DNA of 64,000 nucleotides from Candidatus Aenigmatarchaeota archaeon (GTDB lineage Archaea > Aenigmatarchaeota > Aenigmatarchaeia > CG10238-14), in NCBI GenBank assembly GCA_018304545.1, contig JAGVVZ010000002.1, positions 99,740 through 163,739 on the forward strand. Direction: 5' to 3'. Position numbers and translations under genes: made by a program. How positions within the stretch are numbered: position 1 is the stretch's first letter; the number at the start of each line of letters is the position of its first letter. Under the pieces are notes generated by a model. That model was not told the origin of the DNA. It saw only the letters and a program-made list of their open reading frames with translations, and ran no database searches. Of the stretch, positions 8,460 to 27,470 are shown piece after piece.

Positions 8460-9946
8460 GAATAAATTTTATAATAATAACTATTTTTTTATTATTTTTA
8501 CTAATAAGATTACTAATAACACAAAATTATGTTTGGGGCGCAGACGAAGGAACGCATTTATTGATAGGATTTTTCATAAAAGATATAATAAGTAATTTAA
8601 AAAATTTTGATTCAATAAAAGATTTAGCGAATTTTGCAACAAATTTTGTTGTAAAATATCCAAAGGTGACCCCAAGTTATCCGCCAATATATCATATTTT
8701 TATAGCATCTATATTATTTTTTTCAGAAAATATTATAGTATTAAGAATATTCAATATAGTAATTTTACTATTAACATCATACATAATATACCTAATATCT
8801 AAAGAAATAATAAAAGATGAAAAATATTCTATACTAGGTATAGTAATTTTTTTAACCTTTTCTAGCATGTTTCATTATGCAGATAAAATAATGACGGACA
8901 TAATACAGATTCTAGTATTTTCACTCACAATATTTTATTACATAAAGTTAAAAAATAAAAAATCTACAAACAAAATAGAATATATAAAACTTGGTGTATT
9001 ATTAGCAGTTTCTATGTTGACAAAATTCTTTTCGTTTTTTCTGTATCCAATAATATTTTTAGATTCTATATTATCAAATAAAAAACTATTAAAATACATA
9101 ATATTAGCGTTTGTTGTGTCATTCATAATATTATCACCTTATGGGTTTTTAGTATGGAAATTTAAATTATATAAATTAATTGTCCACATTGCAACCACAC
9201 CATTCGGAAGCAAGTTAAGATATTTTGATTTAAATTTAAATTTCGGATATATACTAGGTCCATTTGTGGCAATATCACTAATATACTTTATGTTAAAAAA
9301 TCATAAAAATTATTTTTACTTTATTTGGTTATTAATACCAATGATAACATTCATGTTATTCGCAGACTCTGACAATAGATTTGCGTTTTTATTAATGCCG
9401 ATATATATTATATCATCTGTTTACTCAATAAAAGAATTATCTAACAAATATAAAAAATATAATAAAATAATATTTTTAATATTTTTTGCTCTAATATTTG
9501 CACAAACTGTTATCAATATAAAAAATAATTACATAAAAGAAAGATATCCTGTAAACGAAATAATGAACATAACAAAAACAGGAGGAAACGTGTTAATACT
9601 TTCAGAGAATCCAATTTTTTCCTCTATTTATGTATTATATGGTAGAATAAATAATATAGAAGGTAATGTAATTAGGCCTTGCATATTTTGGGAAAACAAC
9701 TTATCTAAAAAGTTATTAAATGATTGGGGAATAGAGTATATAATAGATCAAAAAAATAATATGAATAAAAAAGAGTTAGAAATAGAAAAAATTTTCGAAG
9801 GAAGAGCAAATAATGAAATATTTATTTTGTACAAAAATAAGAAATTTAATAATATAGATTGTAATTATATTTGTATATTAAAAGGCGAATTATGTAAAAA
9901 CGACGGATTAAATACAGTTTTAGAATTAATAAAAAATATTAATTAG
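8447..9946 (+). CDS. GT-C-like integral membrane glycosyltransferase (ArnT/PMT-like)
   Basis: 499 aa, about 11-12 hydrophobic helices. Acidic motif WGADEGTH directly after TM1, as in GT39/GT83 enzymes. Soluble C-terminal about 130 aa. Confidence 0.55.
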   Translation: MFKLRINFIIITIFLLFLLIRLLITQNYVWGADEGTHLLIGFFIKDIISNLKNFDSIKDLANFATNFVVKYPKVTPSYPPIYHIFIASILFFSENIIVLRIFNIVILLLTSYIIYLISKEIIKDEKYSILGIVIFLTFSSMFHYADKIMTDIIQILVFSLTIFYYIKLKNKKSTNKIEYIKLGVLLAVSMLTKFFSFFLYPIIFLDSILSNKKLLKYIILAFVVSFIILSPYGFLVWKFKLYKLIVHIATTPFGSKLRYFDLNLNFGYILGPFVAISLIYFMLKNHKNYFYFIWLLIPMITFMLFADSDNRFAFLLMPIYIISSVYSIKELSNKYKKYNKIIFLIFFALIFAQTVINIKNNYIKERYPVNEIMNITKTGGNVLILSENPIFSSIYVLYGRINNIEGNVIRPCIFWENNLSKKLLNDWGIEYIIDQKNNMNKKELEIEKIFEGRANNEIFILYKNKKFNNIDCNYICILKGELCKNDGLNTVLELIKNIN

Positions 9947-11343
9947 ATTGTAATCAATACCTCACCATAATTTATAGTTGAAAACTGTCTGAAAATAATT
10001 ATTTTATTTTTGTCTACACAATATGATAATGGACCTTTATTTATAAAGTTCTTGCATGCTTCTTGTGTTGATTCCATATCAATATTATAATATAAATTTA
10101 AAATCCAAAAAATTTCTCTATCTTTAGACTGTATTAAAATTTTTTTATCTTGGTTCTCGTTTATTATATTAAGCAAATTATTTTTTATGTTATATTCCTT
10201 GTTCAAAAAATAAATCTGGATAGAGAATGAAATGAAGATAAAAACAAACAATACTGATACTATGTATAATTTCAGGAACTTATTGTTGAAATTCAATTGT
10301 CTAGAAAAGTAAATACAAAAAATTGGAAATATTGGAAATATATATCTCGGAATATCAGAAAAGGTGGTTTTTAGAAAGTAGTAAAGTCCAAATACAAAAA
10401 ATATTACAACAAACGGTATAAAATAAAATGTTTTTTTATAATCTTTAATAGTTTTATATATAATAAGATACGATAATGGCATGAAAAACAAAGCAATTAA
10501 AATTTGAATAGCAAAAATAAATTCGTTTGACATATTCAATCTAGATGAAATCCTATATGACGGTGGTAAACCCCAAAAACTTAAATATCCATAGAACAAG
10601 TTAGACGTAAACGATCTTTCTTTATAAAGATTTATTTCATCTTTAGTCCACGGATCATAAATTGGCGTTCCTAATACAATATAATTATGATAAATCCAAA
10701 AACCACTTATAATACTACAAAAAATAACTACAAAAACAAAATATTTTATTTTAAGTGATTTGTTTTTTTCAAAAAGAATAACAGATATAATAGAAGAGAT
10801 AACTAAAAGTATACCTGAAGATTTAATTAATACCAAAAGGCCACAAATTACAGAACCAATTAGATAGTTTTTATCGTAAAAAATAAACCAAAATAGCAAC
10901 AACATAAAAAATATTAAAGGCGAATCTAGCATGATGGATGAAGATAAAAACATATTAATCGGGTATAAAGTGAATAGTAACAAACATAAAATTTTTTCAT
11001 TTTTTGAAAAATTTAATTTTCTTAAAATTTTCAAAATAATTACTGTTGAACCTAAAAAAGAAAATAATTCAAATATTTTTGAAAAAATAAACCACAAAAA
11101 CTGATTTTTGAATGATAACGATAATAATGCTGTTAATATATACAAAACAAATGGCGGATACCAAATTAAATTATTAGTAATTTTTTCTTTTTCTGGTAAT
11201 ACATCATTACTCATAAAAATAGTTTTAGCTGATGCTAAATATCTTAAATCATCACCAAATCTAAAAATAGGTGATACTAGAAGCAATACAATTTTCAGAA
11301 ATAAAATAAATAAAACTACGTGTAATATGTATATATTTTTCAT
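9943..11343 (-). CDS. GT-C-like integral membrane protein (putative glycosyltransferase)
   Basis: 466 aa, polytopic. First loop is RFGDDLRYLASAK (acidic pair after TM1). Soluble C-terminal domain. Confidence 0.45.
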   Translation of the reverse strand: MKNIYILHVVLFILFLKIVLLLVSPIFRFGDDLRYLASAKTIFMSNDVLPEKEKITNNLIWYPPFVLYILTALLSLSFKNQFLWFIFSKIFELFSFLGSTVIILKILRKLNFSKNEKILCLLLFTLYPINMFLSSSIMLDSPLIFFMLLLFWFIFYDKNYLIGSVICGLLVLIKSSGILLVISSIISVILFEKNKSLKIKYFVFVVIFCSIISGFWIYHNYIVLGTPIYDPWTKDEINLYKERSFTSNLFYGYLSFWGLPPSYRISSRLNMSNEFIFAIQILIALFFMPLSYLIIYKTIKDYKKTFYFIPFVVIFFVFGLYYFLKTTFSDIPRYIFPIFPIFCIYFSRQLNFNNKFLKLYIVSVLFVFIFISFSIQIYFLNKEYNIKNNLLNIINENQDKKILIQSKDREIFWILNLYYNIDMESTQEACKNFINKGPLSYCVDKNKIIIFRQFSTINYGEVLITI

Positions 11344-12084: not shown

Positions 12085-13674
12085 ATGAAAACAAGAGACA
12101 AAAAATATTTACTAATATTAATTACGCTGTTAATAGGTTTCTTTTTAAGATCAATTATATTATGGCAAAATATAGAGATTCTAATTCAGAAAATTTTAAT
12201 TGATGACGCATTTATAGCATTCTCAATAGCTAAAAATATAGCAAATAAGAATTTGGTGTCATTTGATGGTGTTTCCATTACAAATGGTTTTCAGCCTTTA
12301 TGGGTATTCATAATAGCACCACTATTCAAGATCATACAAAATGATTCGGTAATACATTTAGTATTAACTGCATCTGCTATGCTAGATACATTAACAATAT
12401 TTTTAATGTATAGAATAGGAAGAATAATTTATAACCATAAAGTCGGTATATTGTGTTCTATAATTTACGCTATCAATCCGTTGTTTATATTTTTTACATT
12501 GAATGGTATAGAAGTATCATTAACTATTTTTTTAATAAACTTGAGTTTGTTATATTTATTTTCAATAAAAAATTTTACTTTTTTTAAATCTATATTACTT
12601 GGAACCATATTAGGCTTAACTATATTATCTCGTATGGACTCGGTTTTTCTTATCATAGGATCTTTTGCTTTTGTTATAATAAAATTTAGAAAAAACGCTT
12701 CACAAATATTTAAATATATCATAATAGTTGTCATAAGTATAATAATTGTAATATCCCCATGGTTTATTTGGAATTATATAAATTTTGAAACGTTTCTACC
12801 CAGTAGCGGTAAAGCTGTATATAAACTAGGGCACATGATATGCAATGTAAATAAATGTAATGACGCAGAACTAATAAATATATTAGTTAAGAACTTATCA
12901 ACTGGTATTTTTTTAATTATATATTATTTCGGTCCAATTAATATCACACCAATAAATATTATTTTAGCTATTTCTGTTGTATACTTCTTAGTTTCATCTA
13001 TAAAAAATAAAAATATTATTTTATTACCACAATTAACTTATGTGGGTTTTATATTGTTGTTTTATTCTCTATACATGTGGAGGTTGGATCTCAGATATTT
13101 TACAGCTTCTTCATCAATATTACTAGTAACGTTATGTGATGGTATATTCTTATTTGCTGAGGGTTTAAAAAACAACAAGCGTCTAGTGGCATCATTAATT
13201 TTCGCGATTTTACTAACTCAAATAATAATCAATGGTTATAAGGAATGGACAAGGGGTTATACACCATGGCAAACAATGATGTACGAAGGTAGTTTATGGA
13301 TAAAAAACAACACGGGGAAGGATGTTGTCGTTTCATCATTCAATAGTGGGTTAATACAGTATTATTCTCAAAGAAGAACTATCAATCTAGATGGTGTGAT
13401 AAACTTTGAAGCTATAAAATCAATAGAAAACAAAAACGTAACAGATTATATAAAATCTAAAAATTCCACTTACTTTTTAGATGCAATTTTAGATATAAAA
13501 AGTGATATTTCTGATAAAAATGCAGGATTGTGGGAAGTAAACTTGTGGACCTCTTACATGGGAAAAAACTATGAAAATTTTTTAAAAATAATAAAAACGG
13601 AAATGAGAGAATTTGAGACTGTTAGTGGGGATAATATGAAAGTTATATTTTTCATAGCACGAGTAATTAATTAA
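12085..13674 (+). CDS. GT-C-like integral membrane protein (putative lipid-linked-sugar glycosyltransferase)
   Basis: 529 aa, polytopic. LIDDAFIAFSIAKNIANK motif after TM1. C-terminal soluble region is ...WIKNNTGKDVVVSSFNSGLIQYYSQRRTINLDGVIN. Confidence 0.5.
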   Translation: MKTRDKKYLLILITLLIGFFLRSIILWQNIEILIQKILIDDAFIAFSIAKNIANKNLVSFDGVSITNGFQPLWVFIIAPLFKIIQNDSVIHLVLTASAMLDTLTIFLMYRIGRIIYNHKVGILCSIIYAINPLFIFFTLNGIEVSLTIFLINLSLLYLFSIKNFTFFKSILLGTILGLTILSRMDSVFLIIGSFAFVIIKFRKNASQIFKYIIIVVISIIIVISPWFIWNYINFETFLPSSGKAVYKLGHMICNVNKCNDAELINILVKNLSTGIFLIIYYFGPINITPINIILAISVVYFLVSSIKNKNIILLPQLTYVGFILLFYSLYMWRLDLRYFTASSSILLVTLCDGIFLFAEGLKNNKRLVASLIFAILLTQIIINGYKEWTRGYTPWQTMMYEGSLWIKNNTGKDVVVSSFNSGLIQYYSQRRTINLDGVINFEAIKSIENKNVTDYIKSKNSTYFLDAILDIKSDISDKNAGLWEVNLWTSYMGKNYENFLKIIKTEMREFETVSGDNMKVIFFIARVIN

Positions 13675-13706: not shown

Positions 13707-15005
13707 ATGAAGACAATTTGTATAATAGGAGCAGGATCCGCGGGTTTAGCAGCAGCTTTGAAATTAAAGGAAATTGGATTTGATGTAACTATATTAGAAA
13801 AAGAAAATTATATAGGCGGATTGGCTTCTAGATATAAGATACTCTGGGATAGAAAAACATATTACATAAACAAAACTTATCATCACATACTAGAGGGAGA
13901 TTTTTACACAATAAAGATGATAAATGATTTCGGAATAAAAAATAAGTTTAAAAAAACGAAGGTAAAAACAGGTTTTGTGTATAAAAACAAAATATGGGGA
14001 TTATCTTCGCCGTTAGACATGATTAAGTTTCCTATACCTTTTTTAGATAAAATAAGACTTGTTTTTTTTATAATCACTTCTTCTATAAAACGGGATTGGA
14101 CTGATACTGAAAAAGTAAATGCAAGGGATTGGATAGTTAAAAGAGCTGGAAAAAACAATTATAATATAATTTTCGAAAAGTTAATAAGAAATAAATTTAA
14201 TAAACTCCCAGAACAAATTTCAGCCGCGTGGTTTGGTACAAGATTTGTTAGAGAATCTCAATCTTTTATGAAAAAATTTGGTTGGTTAGAAGGTGGCGGC
14301 GAAGGATTAATACTGGACTTGATAGCAAAAAAATTACGAAAATTAAATTGTAAAATTAAAACAAATATTCAGATAAAAAAAATTGATGTAAAAAACAAAA
14401 TAATCACATTTATATCTGATAATAATAAAATTGAAGAAAAATTTGATATTATATTAAGCACACTACCACCAGAAGTTTATATTAAATTAGCAACAATGAA
14501 AGATCATTCGGTAAAGTTAGAGGAAGGCTTTAAAAAAATAGAATATTTAAGTGTTATATGTGGTTGTATAGGACTCAAAAAAAAATATAGTAATTTTTAT
14601 TGGTTAAATGTTTTAGATAATTATCCGTTTAAAGTAATATTTACGAATAGCATTTTATATAAAGATTCTGCGCCAAAAAACAAAAGCAATATTTATTTGG
14701 CAACATATTTTAGCGGCGAAAATGAATTGTGGAATAAAAACGAAAATGAAATATTTGAAGTTTATATGAAATATTTAAAAATTATATTTAAAAATTGTGA
14801 AAAAAATGTGGATTGGTACAAAATAGTTAAATTCAAATACGCAGAAGCCATATTTGATCTACACTTCAAAAATCCACCTCTGTCAGATAGTGGTATTTAT
14901 TTCGCAGGAATTTTCAGAATATTCCCAAAAATAAGAAACGTTTCATCTGCTTTGGAATCAGGTTTTGAATCTGCTGATGCAATAATAAGTGATTTTAATG
15001 AGTAA
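13707..15005 (+). CDS. FAD/NAD(P)-binding oxidoreductase (amine-oxidase / PPOX / UGM-like fold)
   Basis: 432 aa. Dinucleotide-binding N-terminus is ICIIGAGSAGLAAALKLKEIGFDVTILEKENYIGGLA. Confidence 0.75.
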   Translation: MKTICIIGAGSAGLAAALKLKEIGFDVTILEKENYIGGLASRYKILWDRKTYYINKTYHHILEGDFYTIKMINDFGIKNKFKKTKVKTGFVYKNKIWGLSSPLDMIKFPIPFLDKIRLVFFIITSSIKRDWTDTEKVNARDWIVKRAGKNNYNIIFEKLIRNKFNKLPEQISAAWFGTRFVRESQSFMKKFGWLEGGGEGLILDLIAKKLRKLNCKIKTNIQIKKIDVKNKIITFISDNNKIEEKFDIILSTLPPEVYIKLATMKDHSVKLEEGFKKIEYLSVICGCIGLKKKYSNFYWLNVLDNYPFKVIFTNSILYKDSAPKNKSNIYLATYFSGENELWNKNENEIFEVYMKYLKIIFKNCEKNVDWYKIVKFKYAEAIFDLHFKNPPLSDSGIYFAGIFRIFPKIRNVSSALESGFESADAIISDFNE

Positions 15006-16080
15006 AATAGCATTTGTGAAAGTCAAACAGGAAAAAGACGGCGTACAAAAGGCTGTTAAAAGGGCAATGGAATTGACATTGTGGAAAAAATATGTAACTG
15101 GAAATAAAATATTTTTAAAAATAAATGGTATTTCAGATCAACTAGTACCGGGTCAATGCACATCACCATGGGTAGTTGAAACGGTTTTAAAAGAAGTTAA
15201 GAGGGTGTTTCCAAAAGCCGAGATTAAAATGGGTGATGCAGATCTAGCAGCCGCGAAACAATTAAATAGAGCTGCAAAATTATGGGGAATACTAGATATT
15301 GCAGAAAAATACGATACAGAATTCGTAAATATATCAGACGAAGAAACAGTAATGCAAAATATAAATGGTAAAATACTAAAAAATATGTTGGTTTCAAAAT
15401 CTGTTTTGGAAGCTGATACTATAATAAATTTGCCCATATTAAAATCTCATTGCCTCACTAAATTAACATGTTGTTTAAAAAATCATTGGGGATTGATACC
15501 AAGGGGGGTAAGGCACAATTACCATCCTCTAGTTAACCAAGTTATAGGAGATATTAACAATTATTTCAAAAAAACAACATATAATTTAGTAGACGGAACA
15601 ATCACGATGGAAGGTGATGCGCCCAGAACGGGTATACCAAAAATAACAAATGTCATATTTGCAGGAAATGACAGGGTAGCAATAGATACAATGGCTGCAA
15701 AATTTATGTGTCTAGATCCAAAAAAAATTAATCACATAAAATTTTCTGAAAAAATGGGTGTTGGATCAATGAAATATGAGATAATTGGAGATAAATTTTT
15801 TACAAACAAATTCGTTGAAGCTAAACCGAATAAACAACCTATATTTCTTCTTGAAATGAATTTTAGGAAAGTTCCCATATTAAAAGAAATTATATTTAAA
15901 ACAAAATTTTTCGATGTTTTTGCTTGGGGAACAAGACAATACAATTCTGTTATATGGTATAATTTAAAAGGCAAAAAAATGGCTGAAAATATTATATATA
16001 ATACGTGGTATGGGCAAGAATTTGAAAAACTCTGGAATAAAACTGGAAAAACTGGAAAATTACCTTCCAATAAGCTTTAA
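14989..16080 (+). CDS. DUF362-family protein
   Basis: 363 aa. ADTIINLPILKSHCLTKLTCCLKNHWG and VDGTITMEGDAP resemble DUF362. 17-nt overlap with the FAD enzyme gene. Confidence 0.55.
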   Translation: MILMSKIAFVKVKQEKDGVQKAVKRAMELTLWKKYVTGNKIFLKINGISDQLVPGQCTSPWVVETVLKEVKRVFPKAEIKMGDADLAAAKQLNRAAKLWGILDIAEKYDTEFVNISDEETVMQNINGKILKNMLVSKSVLEADTIINLPILKSHCLTKLTCCLKNHWGLIPRGVRHNYHPLVNQVIGDINNYFKKTTYNLVDGTITMEGDAPRTGIPKITNVIFAGNDRVAIDTMAAKFMCLDPKKINHIKFSEKMGVGSMKYEIIGDKFFTNKFVEAKPNKQPIFLLEMNFRKVPILKEIIFKTKFFDVFAWGTRQYNSVIWYNLKGKKMAENIIYNTWYGQEFEKLWNKTGKTGKLPSNKL

Positions 16081-16713
16081 ACGTAAAACCAATCTGACAA
16101 ATCTAAATATTTCATTGAAATTAAATTTAGATTGACCTTCCTTTCTTTTATGAAAAATAAATGTAGATTCAACGATTCTATATCCTTTTTTTGTTGCTTT
16201 ATATATCAGTTCTGTCACAACTTTATATCCTATTGGATTTAACTTTATATCTTCCAAAACTCTTCTCTTTATAGCAGCAAAACCAGAAACAGGATCTTTG
16301 ATTTTTAATCCTAAAATAAACCTCGCTATAGAATTCGCACAATGACTTATGGCAACTCTTAGAAATGGATCTTCCACCTTAGATCCGGATATGTATTTTG
16401 ATCCTATAACTATATCATTTTCATCAATCTTTCTTAAAAGGCTTCGTATATCTTTGGGATCGTGGCTTCCGTCGCCATCCATAAGAACTATTATATTTCC
16501 CTTACTTTCTTTCAAACCTTCTAAAAAGGCTTTCCCCAAACCATCTGATTTTTGGACTATAAGTTTTGCATTTTTTATATTTGGTCTATTTTCACTTTTA
16601 TCCACAACTATAATTTCATGTTTAATATTTTTGAGCTCATGATGTATATCATAGATAAGTGTATCAATATAGGGTTCATTTTTTATTGGTATTATAATAG
16701 AGACTAGTGACAT
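16060..16713 (-). CDS. GT2 dolichyl/polyprenyl-phosphate mannose (or glucose) synthase-like
   Basis: 217 aa. VSIIIPIKNEPYI, IIVVDKS, NIIVLMDGDGSHDP, FAAIKRRVLE. Confidence 0.8.
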   Translation of the reverse strand: MSLVSIIIPIKNEPYIDTLIYDIHHELKNIKHEIIVVDKSENRPNIKNAKLIVQKSDGLGKAFLEGLKESKGNIIVLMDGDGSHDPKDIRSLLRKIDENDIVIGSKYISGSKVEDPFLRVAISHCANSIARFILGLKIKDPVSGFAAIKRRVLEDIKLNPIGYKVVTELIYKATKKGYRIVESTFIFHKRKEGQSKFNFNEIFRFVRLVLRLKLIGR

Positions 16714-16726
16714 AAAAACAAATATA

Positions 16727-18049
16727 TTACCAAGATATACCTTTAAATTTCGTTACCTTTCTGGGATCTAAAATAGGTAAACCTTCTATAATATTTGGGG
16801 AGGTTGTTATTCTCGTATGCATTAAATTAAAATCATCATCCGTGAGACTTGCAAATTCTGGCCAGTCAGTAACTATTAAACAACCATCCACGTCCCTCAA
16901 AGCGTCTTTAGCCGATTCAATATATTCTATATCTGGAAATAGTCTTACCATATTAGATGTTGCCTTTGGATCGTATGCCCTTATTGTAGCGCCTCTTTTT
17001 TTTAGTTCCTTTATAATATCTATTGCGGGTGAATATCTGACATCATCTGTATCTTTTTTAAACGCTAAACCTAAAACAGCTATTACCATTTTATTTAGTG
17101 TTCCTAGTGATTTTTCTAATTGATATACCATGATTGTTTTTTGAATTTCATTTGATGTAATTACTGATTTTAATAATGGAACGTCAATATCCAGTTTTTC
17201 TCCTAAATGAATCAAACCCTTTAAATCTTTAGGAAAACAGCTTCCGCCCCATCCTCTACCAGCTCCCAAATATTCTGGTCCTATTCTTGGATCCATACCT
17301 ACAACTTTCATAACTTTTCGCGAATCTATTCCTAAAGAATGACAATATCTTGCTAATTCATTAGCCAAACCTAATCTAGATGCCAGAGAAGCATTAGATG
17401 CGTATTTCATCATCTCGGCTGTTCTAATATCTATTGTAATTATATTTGTTCTACTTCTCCAGGGTTCATATAAAGAAAGTGCTCGAGTTGTAGAACGTTT
17501 ATCATTAGAACCTATAACTATTCTAGACGGATTTAATCCGTCTTTTACTGCATTTCCTTCAGTTAAAAACTCTGGATTCATACAAACACCAAAATCTGAT
17601 ATGTATTTTTTTCCCGAGTATTTAATCAATGTTGGAATAACAGTATCCTCGGTAGAACATGGTATAACAGTACTCTTAATAACAATCAACTGATATTTAG
17701 GATTTGTTCTTATTAGTGTTCCTATATCTTTACTGGCTCGTCTAATATATTCTAAATCAACAGAACTGTCGCCATTTGAAGGCGTGCCTACGCATACAAA
17801 GATTACATCACATTCTCTTAAATCTTTTATATTTGTTGTTGCTGTAACTAGATTTTTTTTCATACCACCGTGCAACATCTCTGGTAAACCTGGTTCATGA
17901 AAAGGCACTTTTAATTCTCTTATTATATTAATTTTATCATGATCCGTATCATAAAAAACTACTTTATACGATCCTCCAGTTTTATCGGTAAAACACGAAC
18001 CAGTCGTTAATCCAACGTAACCGGTTCCTACTATTCCTACTTTATACAT
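16727..18049 (-). CDS. ugd: UDP-glucose/GDP-mannose dehydrogenase family, most like UDP-glucose 6-dehydrogenase
   Basis: 440 aa. VGIVGTGYVGLTTG NAD-binding N-terminus and catalytic-Cys motif GWGGSCFPKDL. Confidence 0.85.
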   Translation of the reverse strand: MYKVGIVGTGYVGLTTGSCFTDKTGGSYKVVFYDTDHDKINIIRELKVPFHEPGLPEMLHGGMKKNLVTATTNIKDLRECDVIFVCVGTPSNGDSSVDLEYIRRASKDIGTLIRTNPKYQLIVIKSTVIPCSTEDTVIPTLIKYSGKKYISDFGVCMNPEFLTEGNAVKDGLNPSRIVIGSNDKRSTTRALSLYEPWRSRTNIITIDIRTAEMMKYASNASLASRLGLANELARYCHSLGIDSRKVMKVVGMDPRIGPEYLGAGRGWGGSCFPKDLKGLIHLGEKLDIDVPLLKSVITSNEIQKTIMVYQLEKSLGTLNKMVIAVLGLAFKKDTDDVRYSPAIDIIKELKKRGATIRAYDPKATSNMVRLFPDIEYIESAKDALRDVDGCLIVTDWPEFASLTDDDFNLMHTRITTSPNIIEGLPILDPRKVTKFKGISW

Positions 18050-18093
18050 GGAATAAAATAGACGTTTTTATAATAAAAGTATTACTTAAGTAT

Positions 18094-18123
18094 TAAATAG
18101 TAATAATATATTATTACTATTTA
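18094..18123. promoter_or_regulatory. Perfect 30-bp palindrome (15-bp arms) ending on the A of the ATG of the RHH-nucleotidyltransferase gene; candidate operator
   Basis: taaatagtaataata|tattattactattta; all 15 pairs checked by hand (18094 pairs with 18123 ... 18108 pairs with 18109). Confidence 0.6.
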
Positions 18124-18950
18124 TGACAAAAATTAGGGTATCATTGAGTATTGATAAAAACTTAATAAAAGACATTGATTCTAGAATCGACGGGATTGTT
18201 ATAAGATCGCGATCTGATGCTATAGAAAAAATCTTGAGGGAACATGTAATCGATAGGAAAACTGCAGTGATATTAGCAGGTGGAACGCCTCATGATCTTA
18301 TTATAAAAGAATTAAATGAGATAAGGCCATTAGTAAACATAGGCAGAAAAACACTAATAGAGGATATTATACTAAAATGTAGAGAATCTGGATTTGTCAA
18401 TATTATAATAATTGGTTTTTCACCAGTTATCGCAAGAATATATGAAGTATTAGGTGATGGAAACAAGTATGGAGTAAAAATAAACTATTTGGAAGAAAAA
18501 GAAACTCTTGGGTCAGCTAAAACTTTAGAACTTGCAAAAAATTATATAAAATCTGATTTTTTGTTTATACCTTGCGATCATTATTTTGATTTTAATTTAA
18601 AAAAACTCCATAATTTCCATTTGCAAAATAGCGGTGTTGTAACTCTTAGTGTTTACACTAAAGACAGACTAGATTCTGAGGCCGGAATAGTTGAAATGGA
18701 CGGATACAACATAATAAATTACGAAGAGAAACCTCAAAAAGCTAAAACATTTCTATCGTCTATTTTCATTGGTTTCATGAAACTTGAAATTTTTAATCTA
18801 ATACCTCCTGGACAAGTTCATTGGAATTTACAGAATAATATATTTCCTAAATTAGCCAAAGAGGGAAAACTTATAGGATATCCTGTGGCTGGCAATTGGA
18901 TAAATGTTCACACAAAAGAGGATGTCGATCTCGTGAGATCATTAAAATAA
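18123..18950 (+). CDS. Ribbon-helix-helix (CopG/NikR-like) domain fused to a sugar-phosphate nucleotidyltransferase-fold domain
   Basis: 275 aa. N-terminus IRVSLSIDKNLIKDID...RSRSDAIEKILREHV has the RHH pattern. Then AVILAGGTPHDL... follows, where the canonical G-x-G-T-R-L loop is degenerate. LGSAKTL and the EEKP motif of NTP-transferases are present. Confidence 0.7.
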   Translation: MTKIRVSLSIDKNLIKDIDSRIDGIVIRSRSDAIEKILREHVIDRKTAVILAGGTPHDLIIKELNEIRPLVNIGRKTLIEDIILKCRESGFVNIIIIGFSPVIARIYEVLGDGNKYGVKINYLEEKETLGSAKTLELAKNYIKSDFLFIPCDHYFDFNLKKLHNFHLQNSGVVTLSVYTKDRLDSEAGIVEMDGYNIINYEEKPQKAKTFLSSIFIGFMKLEIFNLIPPGQVHWNLQNNIFPKLAKEGKLIGYPVAGNWINVHTKEDVDLVRSLK

Positions 18951-19943
18951 AATAAATATAGTCACACAAAACATTAATTCCAATAATATTAACGCTAAAC
19001 TAACTTGTTTTTCGTTCAATCGCCCCAAATTCATTATAACATGCGTCCATGAATATATTTTCTTGCCATAAGGTGGTTCTAAACTATTATCTTTTTTTAG
19101 TTTACCTAAGCACTGCGCACTAAACTTAGATCTAAATTTAAGGAAAAATTCTAAAATGAAAGGGATCATAACTATCATTCCGGCTTTTTCCATGTTTCCT
19201 ATTATTACTCCGGATGCGACAACAGATCCTAAACCATAAGTAAGGCTGTCTCCTGGTAAAATTTTAGCTGGAATCCAATTATATTTAAGAAATGCTAAAA
19301 GCGCACCTGCAGTTGAAATAAATATAACAGCCGAAACTGTTTCACCGTGTTTCAATGCAAATAGGCCTAATGATATAGTATAAACCAAGCCCATTCCTGC
19401 TTCAGAACCATTAAAGCCACCCAACATATTAACAGAGTTAGCAACAAAAACAACACCTAACGGGACTAATATTAACGGGTATATTATACCAAAATTTACA
19501 GACCCTATTAATGGCAGAGTTAGTGAACTATAGCCGGCTTTTATTACCATTAATGGGATGGCTGCAAAAAGTGTCAATAGTGGTTTTTGCCATTGTTTTA
19601 AACCTTTCCTTATTTTGTCTTTACCTTTTAGTATATTGCTGGAGTTAAGATCATCAAAAAATCCTATTATAGAGATTAATAATATTGTTAATGCGGCAGC
19701 AAAAAGGTCCAAAAGTTTTGTTTGATCGTTTAAAAAAAATGTTTTGGAACCTATAAAGAACATTAAACCTACTATCAAAGACAAGACAACGGGTATACCA
19801 CCACTATTAGCTAAAAGTGGTTTATTTTTTTTATGTAAGTCAAATGCAACTATGTTATTATTTTGGAAATACACTATCAGATACTTTGTTAATATAAAAC
19901 AAACGACAAACGACAAAAGGAACGTGACAAGAAGTATAAACAT
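18942..19943 (-). CDS. aglH: UDP-GlcNAc:dolichyl-phosphate GlcNAc-1-phosphate transferase (AglH/Alg7/MraY family)
   Basis: 333 aa, polytopic. GFFDDLNS (DD motif) and NMLGGFNGSEAG (the N-x-x-D/G-G-x-N-G-L/S-E-x-G motif of the archaeal family). Confidence 0.8.
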   Translation of the reverse strand: MFILLVTFLLSFVVCFILTKYLIVYFQNNNIVAFDLHKKNKPLLANSGGIPVVLSLIVGLMFFIGSKTFFLNDQTKLLDLFAAALTILLISIIGFFDDLNSSNILKGKDKIRKGLKQWQKPLLTLFAAIPLMVIKAGYSSLTLPLIGSVNFGIIYPLILVPLGVVFVANSVNMLGGFNGSEAGMGLVYTISLGLFALKHGETVSAVIFISTAGALLAFLKYNWIPAKILPGDSLTYGLGSVVASGVIIGNMEKAGMIVMIPFILEFFLKFRSKFSAQCLGKLKKDNSLEPPYGKKIYSWTHVIMNLGRLNEKQVSLALILLELMFCVTIFILF

Positions 19944-19974: not shown

Positions 19975-20298
19975 TTATTCACTTTTTAATTTCATTATTG
20001 CTTCTACAACGTCGCCTTTTGTCTCTTCTAGTGTCTTTTTTACTCTGATCTCATCTCTAACCCCTGTCTGCTCCATAACTAAATTTATGTCGTCTTGGGA
20101 AAATTGTGGCGCACCATCTCCTGAAATTTGATATACAATTTGGCCTTTCATCGAAGTTTTCACTACTTGGGGATTATTTATTACTATGTCACCGTTTTCT
20201 GTTTTTATTATTACCTGTGATGAACTCACGTTTTCCATCGTCATTCCTAATTGTTTTAATGTTTGTTCCAATTTTTTTGGATCAATTCCTGGCATCAT
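19975..20298 (-). CDS. nac: Nascent polypeptide-associated complex protein (NAC + UBA domains)
   Basis: 107 aa. MMPGIDPKKLEQTLKQLGM..., a NAC beta-barrel region, and a C-terminal UBA-like VKKTLEETKGDVVEAIMKL. Confidence 0.85.
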   Translation of the reverse strand: MMPGIDPKKLEQTLKQLGMTMENVSSSQVIIKTENGDIVINNPQVVKTSMKGQIVYQISGDGAPQFSQDDINLVMEQTGVRDEIRVKKTLEETKGDVVEAIMKLKSE

Positions 20299-22184: not shown

Positions 22185-24905
22185 TTAATATGGAATTTCG
22201 GAAGAAATGTAAATTTTTGACCTTTTTTCACCATCATAAAATAGTAAATCGCCATTACAAAAGTTACATTTTGCGGAAAGTGGTATTCTCCTAAAAATAT
22301 TATTACAATTTTCACAAATTACACCTTCTATATTTGTAAGAAATTTTTCATAACCGTTCTCTGCTGTTGTTTCATGCTTCATAGCATCAAAAATCCCCAT
22401 TTGTTTACCAATACCCATTAATTCAGATTTGTTAACATTAAGTGCTTCAAATACTCTTTCTAGAGGTGGTAATAATTGACTTTCTATATAATATTTAGAA
22501 TCGACTTTTATTCCGTGCTTCTTTGCATACTCGGGATCTTCGGCTCTTTTAGAAACCATACCAACTCCCTGAACTATTATGAAACCTATTCTATCTCCAA
22601 TACCAGGAACTGCTGTTGCGTCTCTTTTTTTCATTTTTCTAACCAATTCCACATGTGGTTGAACACCTTTATACGTTTTAAGGGATTTAGAAATGCTTTT
22701 AGTTATAACCAGCTTACTAATGTCCATTTTACCTGTTTTTATTTGTTCTATTTTATCTCTAACAAGTTTTAATGCCTTATTTATGTTTTGTTCCTTTAGA
22801 ACTACGTTAATAATTTCTTGGAGTGTTTCTGAAACTAAGTTACACCAGTCTCTTCTAACTGTTTCTATACCTTTAGTTACGATTGATTCTTCATATCCAG
22901 AAGACAGAGGTTCAAAATTCCAACCGGCATATCTTTTTTTGTTAAGAATTAAAAGTGTTTTGAATATACTCTCAATTTTTATTTTTAATATACCGTTTAA
23001 TTCATCATTCACAAGTTTGGATATTTCTTCACCTGTCTTAAATGCTTCACTTACTTCTTTAGTTTTAGTTTTGACCATGATAGAATCTGTATCCGCATAT
23101 ATTACTGTGTGGCCTGTTTTGGTTTCAACTATTAATTTTGTTTTACCTATCATTTCTCTACCAACGCCTGTTATTGTGTTGGCTATATCAATTACATACA
23201 ATCTGGCCCTTATGTACCCAGAATATCCATAAAAGGCATTAGCTATAGTTTTAAATGCGTATTGTTTAGCATAAAGATATCTTCTTCCTTCTTCTGATTT
23301 TTCGTTTTTCATTTCTTTTTTTAGTTTGTCTCTAGTAAAAATCAAATACTCGAGTATTTCTGGTATAACGCCCTTTCTGATTTTTGGCGAAACGAAAGAC
23401 GTTCCAAGACTTGTACTCATCTTATCAATATCAATATCTTTGATGAGTAGAGTTGTGGGGCATATATTAAATGACATCATAATACTGGGATACATGGATT
23501 TGAAATCCAAATAAACAACACATTTATCATGAAATCCTATTACTGGTTTTAACACAAATCCGCCTTTTAAACCGCCTTTTATTCTCTCTTCGTTCCTTTT
23601 GTATAATTGACTACTTTCCGGTTTACATGGTAAAACGAAATTCCTCTTATTGAATTCTTTCAAAAGTAAATTATCTATTCTAGCTGCTTCTCCACCATCC
23701 AGCACATCCTGCAAAACTAAGCCAGAAACTTTTGACATTTCAAAAAATTTATCAAGCATGTTTTTCTCAAATAGAATTCTTAACGGTAACTCTGCGTCTC
23801 TTCTACTATAATCAACCAATTTTTCAAATTTTTCACTATTGTCTGTCCAGAATTTTGATATTTCACTAGGTGAAACATCTATTTTACTCTCGCCCAAAAT
23901 TAATTTTGAAACGTCACCTAAACTAAATCTTTTTAATTCTCTATAAAGACCAAACTTTACAGTTGCTTCCTTAATCAAGTCGTATATATCTGCAACGACT
24001 CTGCCCGGAACAACTATTTTCTGTTTATTGGCGAATTTATCTATTCTAATAGGCTTCTGGGAACATCTACCCAAACTTCTACTTACATTATTTTTAATAA
24101 GTCTAGTATCTATAAAAGGCAGATCAAAATTTAAAATATTGTAACCCAAAATAATATCTGGATCAAAATTATCAATTATTTTTGTTAGTTCTACTAACAT
24201 GTCTTTCTCTGAGTCAAAATTCAATGTTCCGTCATATTTCTTAGTTCTCTTAGAAATTAAGACTAAACTGCTTTTCTCTTTATAAGTTGGATAGAAAACC
24301 AAACTTATCATAATAATAGCGTCTTTTTCTGGGTTTGGTAAACCACCTTCCGAGGAAACGGATTCTATATCAATGCTCAGATATTTAATTAAACTATTTT
24401 GATCTATATTTAATTCCTGAATAGAAGTCGCTTGAAATTTTTTTTCAGTTTTAGTTATATTTGTTCTTACGAATTCGCCTATGGCTCTATACCATTTCAT
24501 ACCGTATATATTAAAATCTGTCATAAATCTGTATTTGAATAAAATATCTGCTTCGAATATCTCTTTTACATTCACGTTTAATTTTAGATCTTCACGTATA
24601 TTTGGAACAATTGCTGGATTGTTTAATGTTATTTTAATCATATTTATTGGTTTATCATGAAACCCTATTGAAAGAGTTTTTTCCTTATTCTCTATTTTCA
24701 GTACAACATCTTTATGCTTTTTAGTAATATAATCTACAAGTTCTTTCTCTTTACCAAAATTTGGAAGTACATAAAAATAGGGAAGAAAATTATCAAAAAA
24801 TATAGTAACAGAAGAGTTATCTATAGCCCTACCAAAAATCCTTACTGTCGGCCTAGCGTTTGTCAGTACATAATCTACGTCCAATATTTGAAAGTCTAAT
24901 TCCAT
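22185..24905 (-). CDS. polB: Family B DNA polymerase with a C-terminal zinc-ribbon extension
   Basis: 906 aa. Exo I YLSIDIES, Exo II NILNFDLPF, Exo III YSRRDAEL. Pol A YLDFKSMYPS, Pol B KTIANAFYGY, Pol C IYADTDS. PIP-like KQMGIFDAM is followed by about 60 aa containing CENC-x12-CNFC (nt about 22257..22316). Confidence 0.95.
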   Translation of the reverse strand: MELDFQILDVDYVLTNARPTVRIFGRAIDNSSVTIFFDNFLPYFYVLPNFGKEKELVDYITKKHKDVVLKIENKEKTLSIGFHDKPINMIKITLNNPAIVPNIREDLKLNVNVKEIFEADILFKYRFMTDFNIYGMKWYRAIGEFVRTNITKTEKKFQATSIQELNIDQNSLIKYLSIDIESVSSEGGLPNPEKDAIIMISLVFYPTYKEKSSLVLISKRTKKYDGTLNFDSEKDMLVELTKIIDNFDPDIILGYNILNFDLPFIDTRLIKNNVSRSLGRCSQKPIRIDKFANKQKIVVPGRVVADIYDLIKEATVKFGLYRELKRFSLGDVSKLILGESKIDVSPSEISKFWTDNSEKFEKLVDYSRRDAELPLRILFEKNMLDKFFEMSKVSGLVLQDVLDGGEAARIDNLLLKEFNKRNFVLPCKPESSQLYKRNEERIKGGLKGGFVLKPVIGFHDKCVVYLDFKSMYPSIMMSFNICPTTLLIKDIDIDKMSTSLGTSFVSPKIRKGVIPEILEYLIFTRDKLKKEMKNEKSEEGRRYLYAKQYAFKTIANAFYGYSGYIRARLYVIDIANTITGVGREMIGKTKLIVETKTGHTVIYADTDSIMVKTKTKEVSEAFKTGEEISKLVNDELNGILKIKIESIFKTLLILNKKRYAGWNFEPLSSGYEESIVTKGIETVRRDWCNLVSETLQEIINVVLKEQNINKALKLVRDKIEQIKTGKMDISKLVITKSISKSLKTYKGVQPHVELVRKMKKRDATAVPGIGDRIGFIIVQGVGMVSKRAEDPEYAKKHGIKVDSKYYIESQLLPPLERVFEALNVNKSELMGIGKQMGIFDAMKHETTAENGYEKFLTNIEGVICENCNNIFRRIPLSAKCNFCNGDLLFYDGEKRSKIYISSEIPY

Positions 24906-24935: not shown

Positions 24936-25988
24936 TTACTCTATAAGAACGACTTCTCTTGATTTAAGATTCACATTATATATTTTATAATCGCTCACTG
25001 ATATTATACTCGTTCCTTTATAATTTTTGTAAATATGCGGCTCTATATTAGTAATCACAATATCTGGCAAGTCTGTCAAAACAAAGTCACTTTTGTCTGT
25101 ATTGAAAAGCTTGTTATTTTTAGGTAAAATGAATCTTCTTTTCAATAATTTCTCTATTTCATGTGAAGACAAATCAATCTGGTTTTTATCATAAAATATT
25201 TTTGGTAGAAATAAAATTTTTAAGTTATTAATGTTTATTAATGTTGGCTGATGAATTTCTTGTTGTACAAGTTTAGTCATAAGTTCATTATTCTTTATGC
25301 TTTCAAATAGTTCGTTTTTATCAAAATAAAAATAAAAATCAATTTTCATATTTTCTATCACTTCAAAGTTAACAAATCCATCAGGAAGGAATAACATATT
25401 AATATTTTTTTCTAATCGATTCACGTTTCTGTCTATTCTAACATCTGGATAATATATGTTTTCTAAATAAAATTTAGAATCTATACGTCTACATTTAAGT
25501 CCAAGTACATCATCTGAATCAATATCAATTATTTTATCTTTTAATTTAGACTCGAAATATATTTCAATTTCACCTGTCATATCCTCAACAAGCAATTGGT
25601 TTTGTAATTTGTCTCTTATTATACCTATTATAGAAAATTCGGTTGTTTTGGGATTTATTTTGTTGATGGAAATTAACCTTTCCAAATTGTTGTTTTCTTG
25701 TATTATCTTACTTATTTTTTCATATTTTATTACATAACTTTTGGCGAATTCGTCTATCTTTAGCTGTTTTTTGTCGAAAAAATATGTTTTTAAAATACTT
25801 ATTGTAAGTTTTTCGGATTTAATTTTTATTTTATTTATGTGATCTTGAGTTATTATAAATGGACGCGGATTTAATCTATTCATTTCCTCGATAATAAAAT
25901 GTGGTTCCGAAACAACCAAAGGCAAAGCATCTTTTGATATTTGAAATCCTTTCTCCAGAAATAGTTTAATTGTTTCCTTATCGTCCAT
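24936..25988 (-). CDS. PolD small-subunit (DP1)-like protein: N-terminal helical module + OB fold + shortened phosphoesterase-like domain lacking the metal-ligand motifs
   Basis: 350 aa. IKLFLEKGFQISKDALPLVV (DP1-type N-terminus). OB fold FSIIGIIRDK..LLVEDMTGEIEIYFE..DDVLGLKCRR..IYYPDV. DP1 landmarks LLKRRFILP and LPDIVITN are kept, but D-x-H, G-D-x-x-D, G-N-H-D and G-H-x-H are not recognisable. The start overlaps the cdc6 stop. Confidence 0.6.
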   Translation of the reverse strand: MDDKETIKLFLEKGFQISKDALPLVVSEPHFIIEEMNRLNPRPFIITQDHINKIKIKSEKLTISILKTYFFDKKQLKIDEFAKSYVIKYEKISKIIQENNNLERLISINKINPKTTEFSIIGIIRDKLQNQLLVEDMTGEIEIYFESKLKDKIIDIDSDDVLGLKCRRIDSKFYLENIYYPDVRIDRNVNRLEKNINMLFLPDGFVNFEVIENMKIDFYFYFDKNELFESIKNNELMTKLVQQEIHQPTLININNLKILFLPKIFYDKNQIDLSSHEIEKLLKRRFILPKNNKLFNTDKSDFVLTDLPDIVITNIEPHIYKNYKGTSIISVSDYKIYNVNLKSREVVLIE

Positions 25989-27196
25989 CAGATCACTAAA
26001 TCATGATCAAGTATATCTCTAATTTTTTCTTTCGCTGGCTGAGAAACACTTAATTTTATTTCACGAGTTCGACCATATCTACCTAAAGAAACTATTTTAG
26101 CGTTTATTATACCTGTCATATCTAATTCGGATATTAAATCTGATATTCTTCTTTGAGTTAGTGGATACAAACCAGTTTCCTTGCATTTATTTTCATAAAT
26201 TCCGTAAACATCTCCGGTTTGTATATCTTCTCTTTTTTGATCAACTAATTGAATAGTAGACCATAAAACAACTTTAGTTTGTTTAGGAAGAGATTTTACA
26301 GACTCAACTATTCTATCATAATCTATCTTATCCTGAGCTATATCGACATGTTTCTCTGTTATTTTTGGTTCGCTGTTTCTCTCAACTATTTCACCTGCAA
26401 CCCTGAGAAGATCTAATGCTCTTCTAGCATCACCATGCTCTTGAGCTGCAAGCGCCGCGCATTTTGGAATAACTTCCTCCGATAATATGTAATTATGAAA
26501 GCCAATTTCTGCCCTATGTTTTAATATGTCTTGTAGTTCCAGAGCGTTGTATGGTGGAAACAAAAGCTCTTCTTCACTTAAAGAGCTTTTCACACGAGGA
26601 TCTAAAATATCTATAAAGTGAAGATCGTTTGTTATACCCATAATAGCTACCTTTGCTTTTTTTAGTTCCTGGTTTATTCTCGTAAAATTATAAAGAAAGC
26701 TGTCGCCCATTTTTTCTACAAGAGTGTCTACCTCGTCTAAAATCACAATAACAACCCACTCTCTGGAATCAATTATATTAAAAAATGTTTGATACACCGT
26801 TTCTGTGGGTAAACCTGTTGCGGGAATATCTTCACCCAAAAGCCTAATCAGTTCCGCTACAAGTCTATATTCCGTATCTGCGACTTTTTTCATTTTACAA
26901 TTTATATAAAGCACTTTGACGAGATTGGTGCCTTGATGGGACATCTTTTCCAGTTCCTCGCCTATATATTTTGCGCACAGGGTTTTTCCTGTACCCGTCA
27001 ATCCGTAAATAAAAATATTTGACGGCCTGCCACCTTTCAAAGAGGGTGCAACAATAGAAGCTAACGTATTTATTTGTTCATTCCTGTGTGGTATTGTTTC
27101 TGGGGCAAAGTGTGATGTTAATGCGTCTCTATTCTTAAAAACGGGTGTTGATTTTGTGATAAATTCCTGGAAAATGGTTTGAATATTACGAGACAT
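25988..27196 (-). CDS. cdc6: Orc1/Cdc6 replication initiator
   Basis: 402 aa. Walker A GLTGTGKT, Walker B VVIVILDEVD, sensor region GDARRALDLLR, C-terminal winged helix. Confidence 0.95.
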   Translation of the reverse strand: MSRNIQTIFQEFITKSTPVFKNRDALTSHFAPETIPHRNEQINTLASIVAPSLKGGRPSNIFIYGLTGTGKTLCAKYIGEELEKMSHQGTNLVKVLYINCKMKKVADTEYRLVAELIRLLGEDIPATGLPTETVYQTFFNIIDSREWVVIVILDEVDTLVEKMGDSFLYNFTRINQELKKAKVAIMGITNDLHFIDILDPRVKSSLSEEELLFPPYNALELQDILKHRAEIGFHNYILSEEVIPKCAALAAQEHGDARRALDLLRVAGEIVERNSEPKITEKHVDIAQDKIDYDRIVESVKSLPKQTKVVLWSTIQLVDQKREDIQTGDVYGIYENKCKETGLYPLTQRRISDLISELDMTGIINAKIVSLGRYGRTREIKLSVSQPAKEKIRDILDHDLVI

Positions 27197-27257
27197 AATA
27201 CTTATTTTTCCTATTGAAATAAAGCTTTTTCTATTGGAAAATATATAAACACCCTCA

Positions 27258-27277
27258 CCCCCCTGTTTCCATTGTAG
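27258..27277. promoter_or_regulatory. Origin recognition box ORB-L (C-string + TGTTTCC core)
   Basis: cccccctgtttccattgtag. Its reverse complement ctacaatggaaacagggggg matches the archaeal ORB pattern GGAAAC...GGGG (G-string). Confidence 0.7.
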
Positions 27278-27470
27278 ACTTAATATATAACTATTTAGAG
27301 AATATAACAGTATTATAATTATTTAACTACTTTAAAATGATTAAATATTTAACACGAAATTTAACAAAAAGGGTTAACAAGATCAAAACACAGAACATAT
27401 ATCAATTTATATTAAATTATTTCCTCATGTCTCAACGAAAACATAAAACAATATAAAAATTATTTTTATA

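Follow-up and report, generated by a model that had tools for sequence, protein, structure and literature searches.

The gene examined here raises the question of whether a protein that carries the fold of a sugar-nucleotide pyrophosphorylase makes a sugar nucleotide or senses one. The stretch of DNA that was analysed, referred to below as the window, comprises 64 kb of a contig (JAGVVZ010000002.1) from a Candidatus Aenigmatarchaeota archaeon. At positions 18123..18950 it contains a gene in which a ribbon-helix-helix (RHH) DNA-binding domain is fused to a sugar-1-phosphate nucleotidyltransferase (NTase)-like domain, and a perfect 30-bp palindrome runs directly into its start codon. This gene most likely encodes an uncharacterised DNA-binding regulator, a candidate switch that would match surface-sugar synthesis to the levels of sugar nucleotides. 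The reading we favour, and consider reasonably probable, is that of an autoregulated RHH one-component regulator acting on a four-box operator, the NTase-like domain of which senses a nucleoside diphosphate (NDP)-sugar without making it. The features of the protein are as follows.

18123..18950, plus strand: coding sequence (CDS) of the RHH and NTase-like fusion, taken from the listing of open reading frames (ORFs); 275 amino acids plus stop codon, the protein beginning MTKIRVSLSIDKNLIKDID
18123..18260, plus strand: RHH DNA-binding domain, residues 1-46, NikR/CopG-like
18261..18947, plus strand: sugar-1-phosphate NTase-like domain, residues 47-275, proposed ligand sensor
18279..18299, plus strand: degenerate nucleotide-binding loop GGTPHDL, residues 53-59, where the canonical form in the alignment with 7whr is G-G-x-G-T-R-L
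18897..18911, plus strand: W259-I-N261-V-H263 in place of W-x-D-x-G, where 7whr has WMDVG

Domain architecture of the fusion protein

The start of the CDS is supported by the N-termini of the orthologues, which read M(T)K-x-R-[VI]-S-L-S-L. The initial annotation, made from the sequence alone, had recognised an RHH pattern in the first 45 residues or so and an NTP-transferase fold in the remainder, and both assignments hold. On the query alone, Pfam RHH_1 matches residues 5-42 with an E-value of 3e-3 and 17.8 bits, which is below the gathering score of 20.5, and 31 of 41 family members are matched individually (best E-value 3e-7). A profile of residues 1-46 built from 28 orthologues matches NikR of P. 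horikoshii (PDB 2bj1) with an E-value of 1.6e-4, followed by an RHH antitoxin, the NikR proteins of E. coli and H. pylori and, weakly, CopG. An AlphaFold2 model of the fusion, computed from a 41-sequence alignment, reached a mean predicted local distance difference test (pLDDT) value of 91.7 and a predicted template modelling (pTM) score of 0.82. In this model the RHH segment has a beta-alpha-alpha-like layout with an extended stretch at residues 3-10 (K-x-R-V-S-L-S) and helices at residues 12-20 and 30-43 (pLDDT 76-94); DSSP does not assign the strand in the monomer model, as expected for a monomer. The predicted DNA-reading strand is K3-x-R5-V-S7-L-S9, and R5, S7 and S29-R30-S31 are conserved at 90% or more. 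A homologue search with the RHH domain alone, which sought other fusion partners, returned only four short proteins.

A linker of just two to three residues separates the RHH domain from the first strand of the NTase fold. The second domain is matched by Pfam PF00483 (NTP_transferase) over residues 48-211 with an E-value of 1e-19 and 71.6 bits against a gathering score of 21.2. Foldseek comparison of the fusion model retrieved RmlA, MurU, a cyanobacterial UDP-glucose pyrophosphorylase and human GMPPB (TMq 0.70-0.75, E-values around 1e-17).

Degeneration of the catalytic site

The active site was compared in an alignment of 112 close homologues with a canonical enzyme fragment, 7whr. It had been noted from the sequence that the signature loop is degenerate, and this was borne out both for GGTPHDL against 7whr and across the family, in which the loop takes the form G-G-x-P-x-x-L. 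The second Gly is replaced by Pro in 106 of the 112 sequences, the Thr is mostly Glu, and the position of the catalytic Arg is occupied by K, N, R or D, with Asp in the window protein. Among more distant orthologues the loop is hypervariable (GGTPHDL, GGDPKKL, GGRVKEL, GGPASAL and GGGD---Y, the last with a deletion of three residues). The catalytic Lys of the P-K-x-L motif, about ten residues past the loop, is Arg68 in 111 of 112 sequences, a conservative change. At the metal-binding Asp position of W-x-D-x-G stands N261, which is invariant, followed by a nearly invariant H263. Of the four catalytic motifs by which NTases were judged, three therefore deviate, namely the loop, the Lys and the Asp of W-x-D-x-G. 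The fourth, reported at the outset as a retained EEKP motif, is present in the window protein as E202-K203-P204, lysine included, but is not conserved in the close family, where the Lys position holds F in 32, N in 19 and K in 15 of the 112 sequences.

Other positions are strongly constrained. G53, G54, K133, E202, W259, N261 and D267 are invariant, R68, D152 and H263 are conserved at 90% or more, and P69, E124-E125, G130-x-A132, G194, P204 and G217 are invariant or nearly so; many of the listed positions line the base and sugar pocket in canonical enzymes. Variable phosphate-handling positions combined with constraint on the rest of the pocket form the pattern expected of a domain that only binds its ligand, although this is not proof. 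Since the phosphate-handling signature is lost and the positions that bind base and sugar are kept, the domain is proposed to bind an NDP-sugar rather than to make one.

A phased box array in front of the gene

The intergenic region between the fusion gene and a divergent ugd-family gene is 73 bp long and has a GC content of 14%, compared with 30% for the whole window. It contains the following elements.

16727..18049, minus strand: divergent ugd-family nucleotide-sugar dehydrogenase gene, with the N-terminal, central and C-terminal Pfam UDPG_MGDP_dh domains
18065..18078: A/T block TTTTTATAATAAAA, putative TATA box or boxes common to both divergent promoters, abutting box B1
18079..18085: operator box B1, GTATTAC, first box of a phased array conserved before the orthologues
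18090..18096: operator box B2, GTATTAA
18100..18106: operator box B3, GTAATAA
18111..18117: operator box B4, TTATTAC
18094..18123: perfect 30-bp palindrome, TAAATAGTAATAATA|TATTATTACTATTTA, the last base of which is the A of the ATG

The palindrome reported in the initial annotation is real: from the sequence and the ORF coordinates it ends on the A of the ATG and lies within the divergent ugd promoter region. It is also uncommon: no other perfect palindrome in the 64 kb has arms as long as 15 bp, the second longest reaching 10 bp, and arms of 15 bp were reached in none of 300 first-order Markov shuffles of the window, the maximum being 14, which occurred once.

The surroundings of the gene were compared in 22 loci from species-representative genomes of Aenigmatarchaeota, Parvarchaeota, Nanoarchaeota, Micrarchaeota and Burarchaeum, with protein identities between 38 and 97%. 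The palindrome is identical in L001 (protein identity 97%) and imperfect in L002 (65%). It consists of boxes B3 and B4 with their flanks, and what is shared among the loci is the box. Near-palindromic 7-bp boxes of the form GTA(A/T)TA(C/A) precede the orthologous gene in all 21 distinct loci with a standard RHH domain, which are the 19 loci of an anchored alignment and two metagenome contigs (L116 and L137). Each locus has two to seven boxes at a phasing of 10-11 bp, and the array stops 1-10 bp short of the start codon. In its usual form it consists of four boxes at intervals of 11-10-11 bp; L007 and L009 contain six or seven, and in a number of loci two or three are recognisable. Anchored on box 3, the 19 loci give the consensus tttaaatatAttAC-N4-GTAtTAA-N3-GTAATAc-N4-GTATTAc, with high information content in the boxes and low information content in the spacers, and a TATA-like tttaaata lies directly 5' of box 1 or overlaps it. 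The consensus of the array can also be written TTTAAATA-tATTAC-N4-GTATTAA-N3-GTAATAc-N4-GTATTAC, with variable spacers. The proposal that an operator precedes the gene thus stands with a refinement: an operator-like element is present, but the conserved unit is the set of four 7-bp boxes and the perfect palindrome is specific to a lineage. Likewise, the fusion recurs widely in related genomes, and it is the box array, not the palindrome, that is conserved with it.

The four-box chain is unique in the window, and the number in shuffled sequences was 0.005 for chains of at least three boxes and zero for chains of at least four. In 173 kb of related loci, other arrays were found only upstream of genes for epimerases/dehydratases of the short-chain dehydrogenase/reductase (SDR) family, in L007 and L021, and the array-bearing SDR gene of L007 heads an epimerase-ugd operon. 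Two further chains of two boxes in the window, at 12349 (in a PMT_2-like CDS) and at 27183 (at the orc1/cdc6 start codon), are at chance level, with 0.63 expected, and were discarded as noise.

A metagenome-wide scan for three-box arrays was uninformative on the regulon, since 118 of the 120 matches listed were not beside a fusion gene and L116 and L137 were the only true sites. The off-target matches that were inspected are unrelated direct tandem repeats of 10-11-bp units in which GTATTA or GTAATA occurs, such as (GTATTAgcag)n, many of them on contigs of high GC content. The tandem arrays on several contigs (L089:1574, L140:6168, L057:289, L091:489, L026:2042, L038, L078 and L084) have an iteron-like look and no RHH-NTase gene nearby.

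Change of the RHH type

In three proteins (P0114, P0115 and P0118) the NTase-like domain is preceded by an RHH domain of another kind, RHH_10/DUF7557 (TTIQISDELRKKLK). The divergent ugd-NTase-SDR-epimerase layout persists at the corresponding loci (L023-L025), and GTAWTAC boxes are found nowhere in them. Their intergenic regions have a TATA-like TTTAAATATATA block that is flanked by an inverted repeat, TTTTACATA-N~20-TATGTAAAA, at the following positions.

L023:3936-4001: inverted-repeat region of the P0114 locus
L024:3935-4001: inverted-repeat region of the P0115 locus
L025:3745-3809: inverted-repeat region of the P0118 locus

GTAWTAC boxes are also absent from the loci of longer variants of 413-419 amino acids (P0053, P0083, P0089, P0110, P0113 and P0116), although the divergent ugd-NTase-SDR synteny is kept there too. 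In these variants an RHH_10-type RHH domain and some 90 further residues that form a domain of their own stand before an ordinary RHH domain, which is partly degenerate, and the NTase-like domain. The boxes accordingly track the type of the RHH domain rather than the gene neighbourhood, which is the strongest computational evidence that the RHH domain reads the boxes.

The domain of about 90 residues in the long variants (FAKWFEKNL...VELELIG..F..H.HDPKKVD..VCVYSD; loci L146, L147 and L149) is possibly nuclease-like. In L146 and L147 the ugd and epimerase neighbours are called as several short ORFs, suggesting frameshifts or assembly errors.

Distribution of the fusion

A first homologue search gave 270 proteins at E<=1e-5, and nearly all of the 120 listed have about 275 residues and the same fusion, 102 of them falling between 270 and 279 residues. 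In the source databases they are named 'NDP-sugar pyrophosphorylase family protein', 'mannose-1-phosphate guanylyltransferase' or 'NTP transferase domain-containing protein'. An exhaustive profile search over 1.84 billion cluster representatives yielded 154 matches at E<=1e-30, and the best 148 were analysed: 133 of these carry an RHH domain and 124 are full-length RHH-NTase fusions. The canonical loop together with P-K and E-K-P is kept in eight of the 124 full-length fusions (P0154, P0160, P0175, P0180, P0185, P0210, P0223 and P0236), five of which keep WxDxG as well, and is missing from the other 116. Judging from these motifs, the eight may be active enzymes that also bind DNA, so that fusions of a working enzyme with an RHH domain probably exist.

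One of them, P0210 (L150:3001-3807; NCBI assembly GCA_023659865.1), has a neighbourhood unrelated to glycans, with an amino-acid kinase, an ornithine carbamoyltransferase and an amidohydrolase.

Association with nucleotide-sugar genes

In the window, the fusion gene belongs to a glycan-synthesis island that occupies positions 1-20 kb and comprises four GT1, three GT2 and two PMT_2-like genes, a methyltransferase gene, ugd and a GT4 gene. The only NCBIfam model whose threshold the divergent ugd-family protein passes is NDP-sugDHase (419 bits), a general nucleotide-sugar dehydrogenase model; it is closest to AglM/TuaD (UDP-glucose 6-dehydrogenase), and its best equivalog is AglM at a sub-threshold score. 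This gene is a likely co-regulated target of the fusion protein. It is followed by a further gene on the same strand.

16060..16713, minus strand: GT2 glycosyltransferase gene, AglJ/Dol-P-hexose transferase-like, directly downstream of ugd

The gap of 13 bp and the common strand indicate that this GT2 gene probably shares the ugd operon.

Across the related loci, a ugd-family gene is found in 16 of 22 and is directly divergent from the fusion gene in ten loci, the window included. Elsewhere the divergent neighbour is a canonical NTase (L007, L009 and L013), an SDR epimerase/dehydratase (L014, L015 and L016), an RmlC-like isomerase (L018 and L020) or a GFO/IDH/MocA-C-methyltransferase fusion (L002); genes for GT2, RmlD and an RmlA-long-type NTase are among those found downstream. 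The ugd gene of L017 and L019 follows the fusion gene on the same strand, separated from it by a canonical NTase gene, and could be co-transcribed with it. Without exception, the genes divergent from or adjacent to the fusion gene concern nucleotide sugars (ugd, NTase, SDR epimerase/dehydratase, RmlC-like, RmlD, GT2). The regulator thus constantly accompanies nucleotide-sugar synthesis or modification, and the box array constantly accompanies the regulator gene.

Intact canonical NTase genes are present in the same locus as the fusion in 17 related loci, either as a GalU-type gene (AAGxGTRxxPxTKxxPKEMLP) directly after ugd (L003-L006 and L012) or as an RmlA-type gene inside rml-like clusters (L014, L018 and L020), among others. 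In these loci the fusion is therefore an extra paralogue and not the enzyme of the pathway, which is an indirect argument for the window genome.

Proposed mechanism

The RHH domains are expected to dimerise, with one dimer for each heptamer GTA(A/T)TAC, and since the heptamers lie one helical turn apart, up to four dimers could line up on one face of the DNA. They would then cover the region from the TATA-like block to the start codon and keep the transcription machinery from assembling at the promoter of the fusion gene. Archaeal repressors are usually positioned over the region in which TBP/TFB and RNA polymerase assemble, and the location of the boxes over this region of the fusion gene's promoter argues for autorepression; autoregulation is well supported by the position of the operator. 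The A/T block at 18065..18078 is a putative TATA box by the archaeal promoter consensus. It precedes the ugd ATG by about 26 bp, which fits a leaderless transcript, and B1 falls at the expected B recognition element (BRE) of the divergent ugd promoter, so that its occupancy should affect ugd-GT2 as well. The initial annotation suggested that the protein may repress both its own gene and ugd; the first part agrees with the operator position, and the effect on ugd could be either repression or activation.

On their short linkers, the NTase-like domains would make contacts between the dimers, and an NDP-sugar in the pocket would tune these contacts, by which ligand binding would be coupled to the affinity for DNA or to the cooperativity between dimers. 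In the lineage of the window the ligand is most plausibly UDP-glucose or UDP-glucuronate. The logic is most likely that of end-product feedback with the ligand as co-repressor, as in NikR and MetJ.

Weighing of the alternatives

Several observations weigh against this reading. The catalytic site is partly kept: D152 and E202 are conserved, and most members have a Lys at the Arg position and an Arg at the Lys position. The Asn at position 261 alone is no proof of inactivity, because GlmU has an Asn as its second metal ligand. A search of the 64-kb window for a canonical NTase found none, so the fusion could still be a working enzyme in this genome. The associated operons differ by lineage (ugd-galU versus rml-type) and so do not constrain the identity of the ligand. 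The fused domain is closer to NTases of the RmlA-long/GlmU type than to those of the GalU type. A Foldseek search with the isolated 46-residue RHH model gave nothing significant, the top matches being RHH-type TraM and TCP domains at E>1, because the model is too small. Finally, among the sequencing runs checked for transcripts, no RNA run contains the locus.

The main alternative, which we consider unlikely, is a bifunctional enzyme-repressor comparable to BirA, NadR or PutA, in which an active NTase with non-canonical residues is joined to an RHH domain that autoregulates according to occupancy by substrate or product. The intact and confidently modelled fold, the retained D152 and E202, and the lack of a canonical NTase among the genes of the window would suit such a protein; K58 and R68 of most members could stand in for the canonical Arg and Lys, and the full canonical signature persists in eight of the 124 RHH-NTase clusters. 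The window protein, however, has Asp in place of the Arg, its glycine-rich loop contains both a Pro and a His, this loop is free to vary among orthologues up to the deletion of three residues, the lysine of E-K-P is not conserved, and the intact NTase paralogues in 17 loci would make a second, crippled enzyme redundant. Ranked behind it, and improbable in our view, is a ligand-independent repressor, with the NTase-like domain as an oligomerisation scaffold only and regulation exerted through protein level or another factor. NTases of this fold such as RmlA and GalU are commonly dimers or tetramers, and a linker of two to three residues suits a rigid scaffold, but the positions of the nucleotide-sugar pocket are the most conserved of the protein, which is hard to explain without a ligand.

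That the palindrome is an RNA or DNA hairpin (occluding the start codon or forming a cruciform) or a chance A/T feature, unrelated to the RHH domain, is very improbable. For the window transcript a hairpin of -12.8 kcal/mol (z = -6.3) is predicted, the stem of which would include the start codon, but in 11 of the 19 loci, for example L004, L007, L011, L014, L016, L018, L020 and L021, the hairpin is absent or insignificant (|z| < 2), for which reason translational control by an RNA hairpin was not accepted as the conserved role. Conservation is seen in the boxes and their phasing, and the boxes vanish exactly where the RHH type changes, and the shuffles exclude chance for the palindrome and for the box chain. 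A binding-only NDP-sugar sensor on the four-box operator remains the reading we prefer.

Relation to known systems

The best match to the N-terminal domain is NikR (PDB 2bj1, 1q5v), with NCBIfam NikR models matching residues 3-46 far below the cut-off. NikR is an autoregulated, ligand-dependent repressor in which an N-terminal RHH domain is likewise followed directly by a C-terminal domain for ligand binding and oligomerisation. However, this domain is an ACT-like tetramerisation domain with a His/Cys nickel site in NikR and a 230-residue NTase fold in the fusion, which is not a NikR because it lacks the ACT-like nickel domain. The operators differ as well, four heptamers at one-turn phasing against two half-sites, which in NikR lie about two turns apart. 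The array also resembles the sites of the plasmid and phage repressors CopG, Arc, Mnt and omega, which bind short repeated or pseudo-symmetric boxes cooperatively, several dimers lining up along the same side of the helix and covering the promoter; in CopG four dimers occupy successive turns, and the sites read by omega are 7-bp heptads. Unlike the fusion, these proteins have about 45-70 residues, no effector domain and no small-molecule input.

For the NTase-like domain, GMPPA (PDB 7d72-7d74) offers a functional analogy only. Its partner GMPPB is among the top fold matches, and GMPPA itself, an NTase paralogue, is described as having no catalytic role but binding GDP-mannose and controlling GMPPB (PMC11228364), showing that a catalytically dead member of this fold can act as a sensor of the product of its pathway. 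GMPPA acts allosterically in a protein complex and has a C-terminal left-handed beta-helix (LbH), whereas the fusion would act on transcription; the latter is not a GMPPA orthologue because it has no hexapeptide/LbH domain and ends at residue 275 with the NTase fold. The combination of a DNA-binding domain with a domain derived from a pathway enzyme is shared with NrtR (Nudix-like with a winged helix-turn-helix, wHTH), MocR/GabR (aminotransferase-like with wHTH), BirA, NadR and PutA, of which NadR carries a nucleotidyltransferase domain and PutA an RHH domain. They differ in folds, DNA-binding domains and pathways, none joining an RHH domain to a sugar-1-phosphate NTase and none being related to archaeal glycans. 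NrtR, with its Nudix-like effector domain, was annotated as an enzyme and recognised by comparative genomics, as outlined in its description (PMC2330246). With AglF/AglM, the UTP-glucose-1-P uridylyltransferase and UDP-glucose dehydrogenase of N-glycosylation in archaea, there is a likeness in that the divergent operon of related loci is ugd followed by a GalU-type NTase gene and that the fused domain weakly matches AglF. All scores are far below the equivalog cut-offs, and the fusion is not an AglF because the catalytic signature is lost.

The initial annotation knew of no characterised example of this architecture, and our literature search found none: no published description of an RHH domain joined to a sugar-1-phosphate NTase was found, nor any regulator of archaeal genes for glycan or N-glycosylation precursors. 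Neither the RHH-NTase combination nor its operator and pathway seem to have been described before, while the general design is already well known.

Further features of the window

The genes downstream of the fusion gene include the following.

18942..19943, minus strand: GT4 gene, MraY/AglH-like, converging on the fusion gene
19975..20298: NAC ORF, which together with the family-B DNA polymerase and Orc1/Cdc6 ORFs marks the organism as an archaeon
22185..24905: ORF of a family-B DNA polymerase, adjoining the Orc1/Cdc6 gene
25988..27196, minus strand: Orc1/Cdc6 ORF

The stop codons of the fusion gene and the convergent GT4 gene overlap by 9 bp (18942-18950), which leaves no space for a terminator between them. 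Within the glycosyltransferase island, a flavin amine-oxidase-like gene and a DUF362 gene (13707-16080) overlap by 17 bp; the pair is kept with the island in L001, and another DUF362 homologue occurs in L010. Two ORFs on the minus strand are without a Pfam match, one of 466 amino acids at 9943-11343 (E<=1e-5) and one of 350 amino acids at 24936-25988 (E<=1e-4). Short repeats (cctattgaaa / tctattggaaa) lie in an A/T-rich region upstream of the Orc1/Cdc6 gene (27183-27300), which by its sequence may be a replication origin. The DNA sequencing runs that contain the locus are groundwater and soil metagenomes, and the related contigs belong to DPANN metagenome-assembled genomes.

Implications for the family

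To our knowledge, very little is known about the regulation of transcription in DPANN archaea; few regulators can be recognised in their reduced genomes, and most of these archaea are uncultured. It is possible, and we put this forward only tentatively, that the RHH-NTase fusions constitute a large unnamed family of archaeal transcription factors, comprising no fewer than 124 clusters at 50% identity in most of which the loop is degraded, and that a pyrophosphorylase fold has here become an NDP-sugar sensor. The family would then provide the first described transcriptional feedback on surface-glycan precursors in DPANN archaea, with an operator that can be read from the sequence, and an evolutionary series leading from an enzyme through an enzyme-plus-RHH fusion to a sensor-only pseudoenzyme. 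If this is true, proteins annotated as pyrophosphorylases or guanylyltransferases would act as regulators, and metabolic reconstructions that count them as enzymes would be distorted. As a defined pair of protein and operator, the family is testable in vitro without cultivation of the host. It would also be a natural case of a pseudoenzyme recruited as a sensor, and could serve as a biosensor switch that responds to NDP-sugars.

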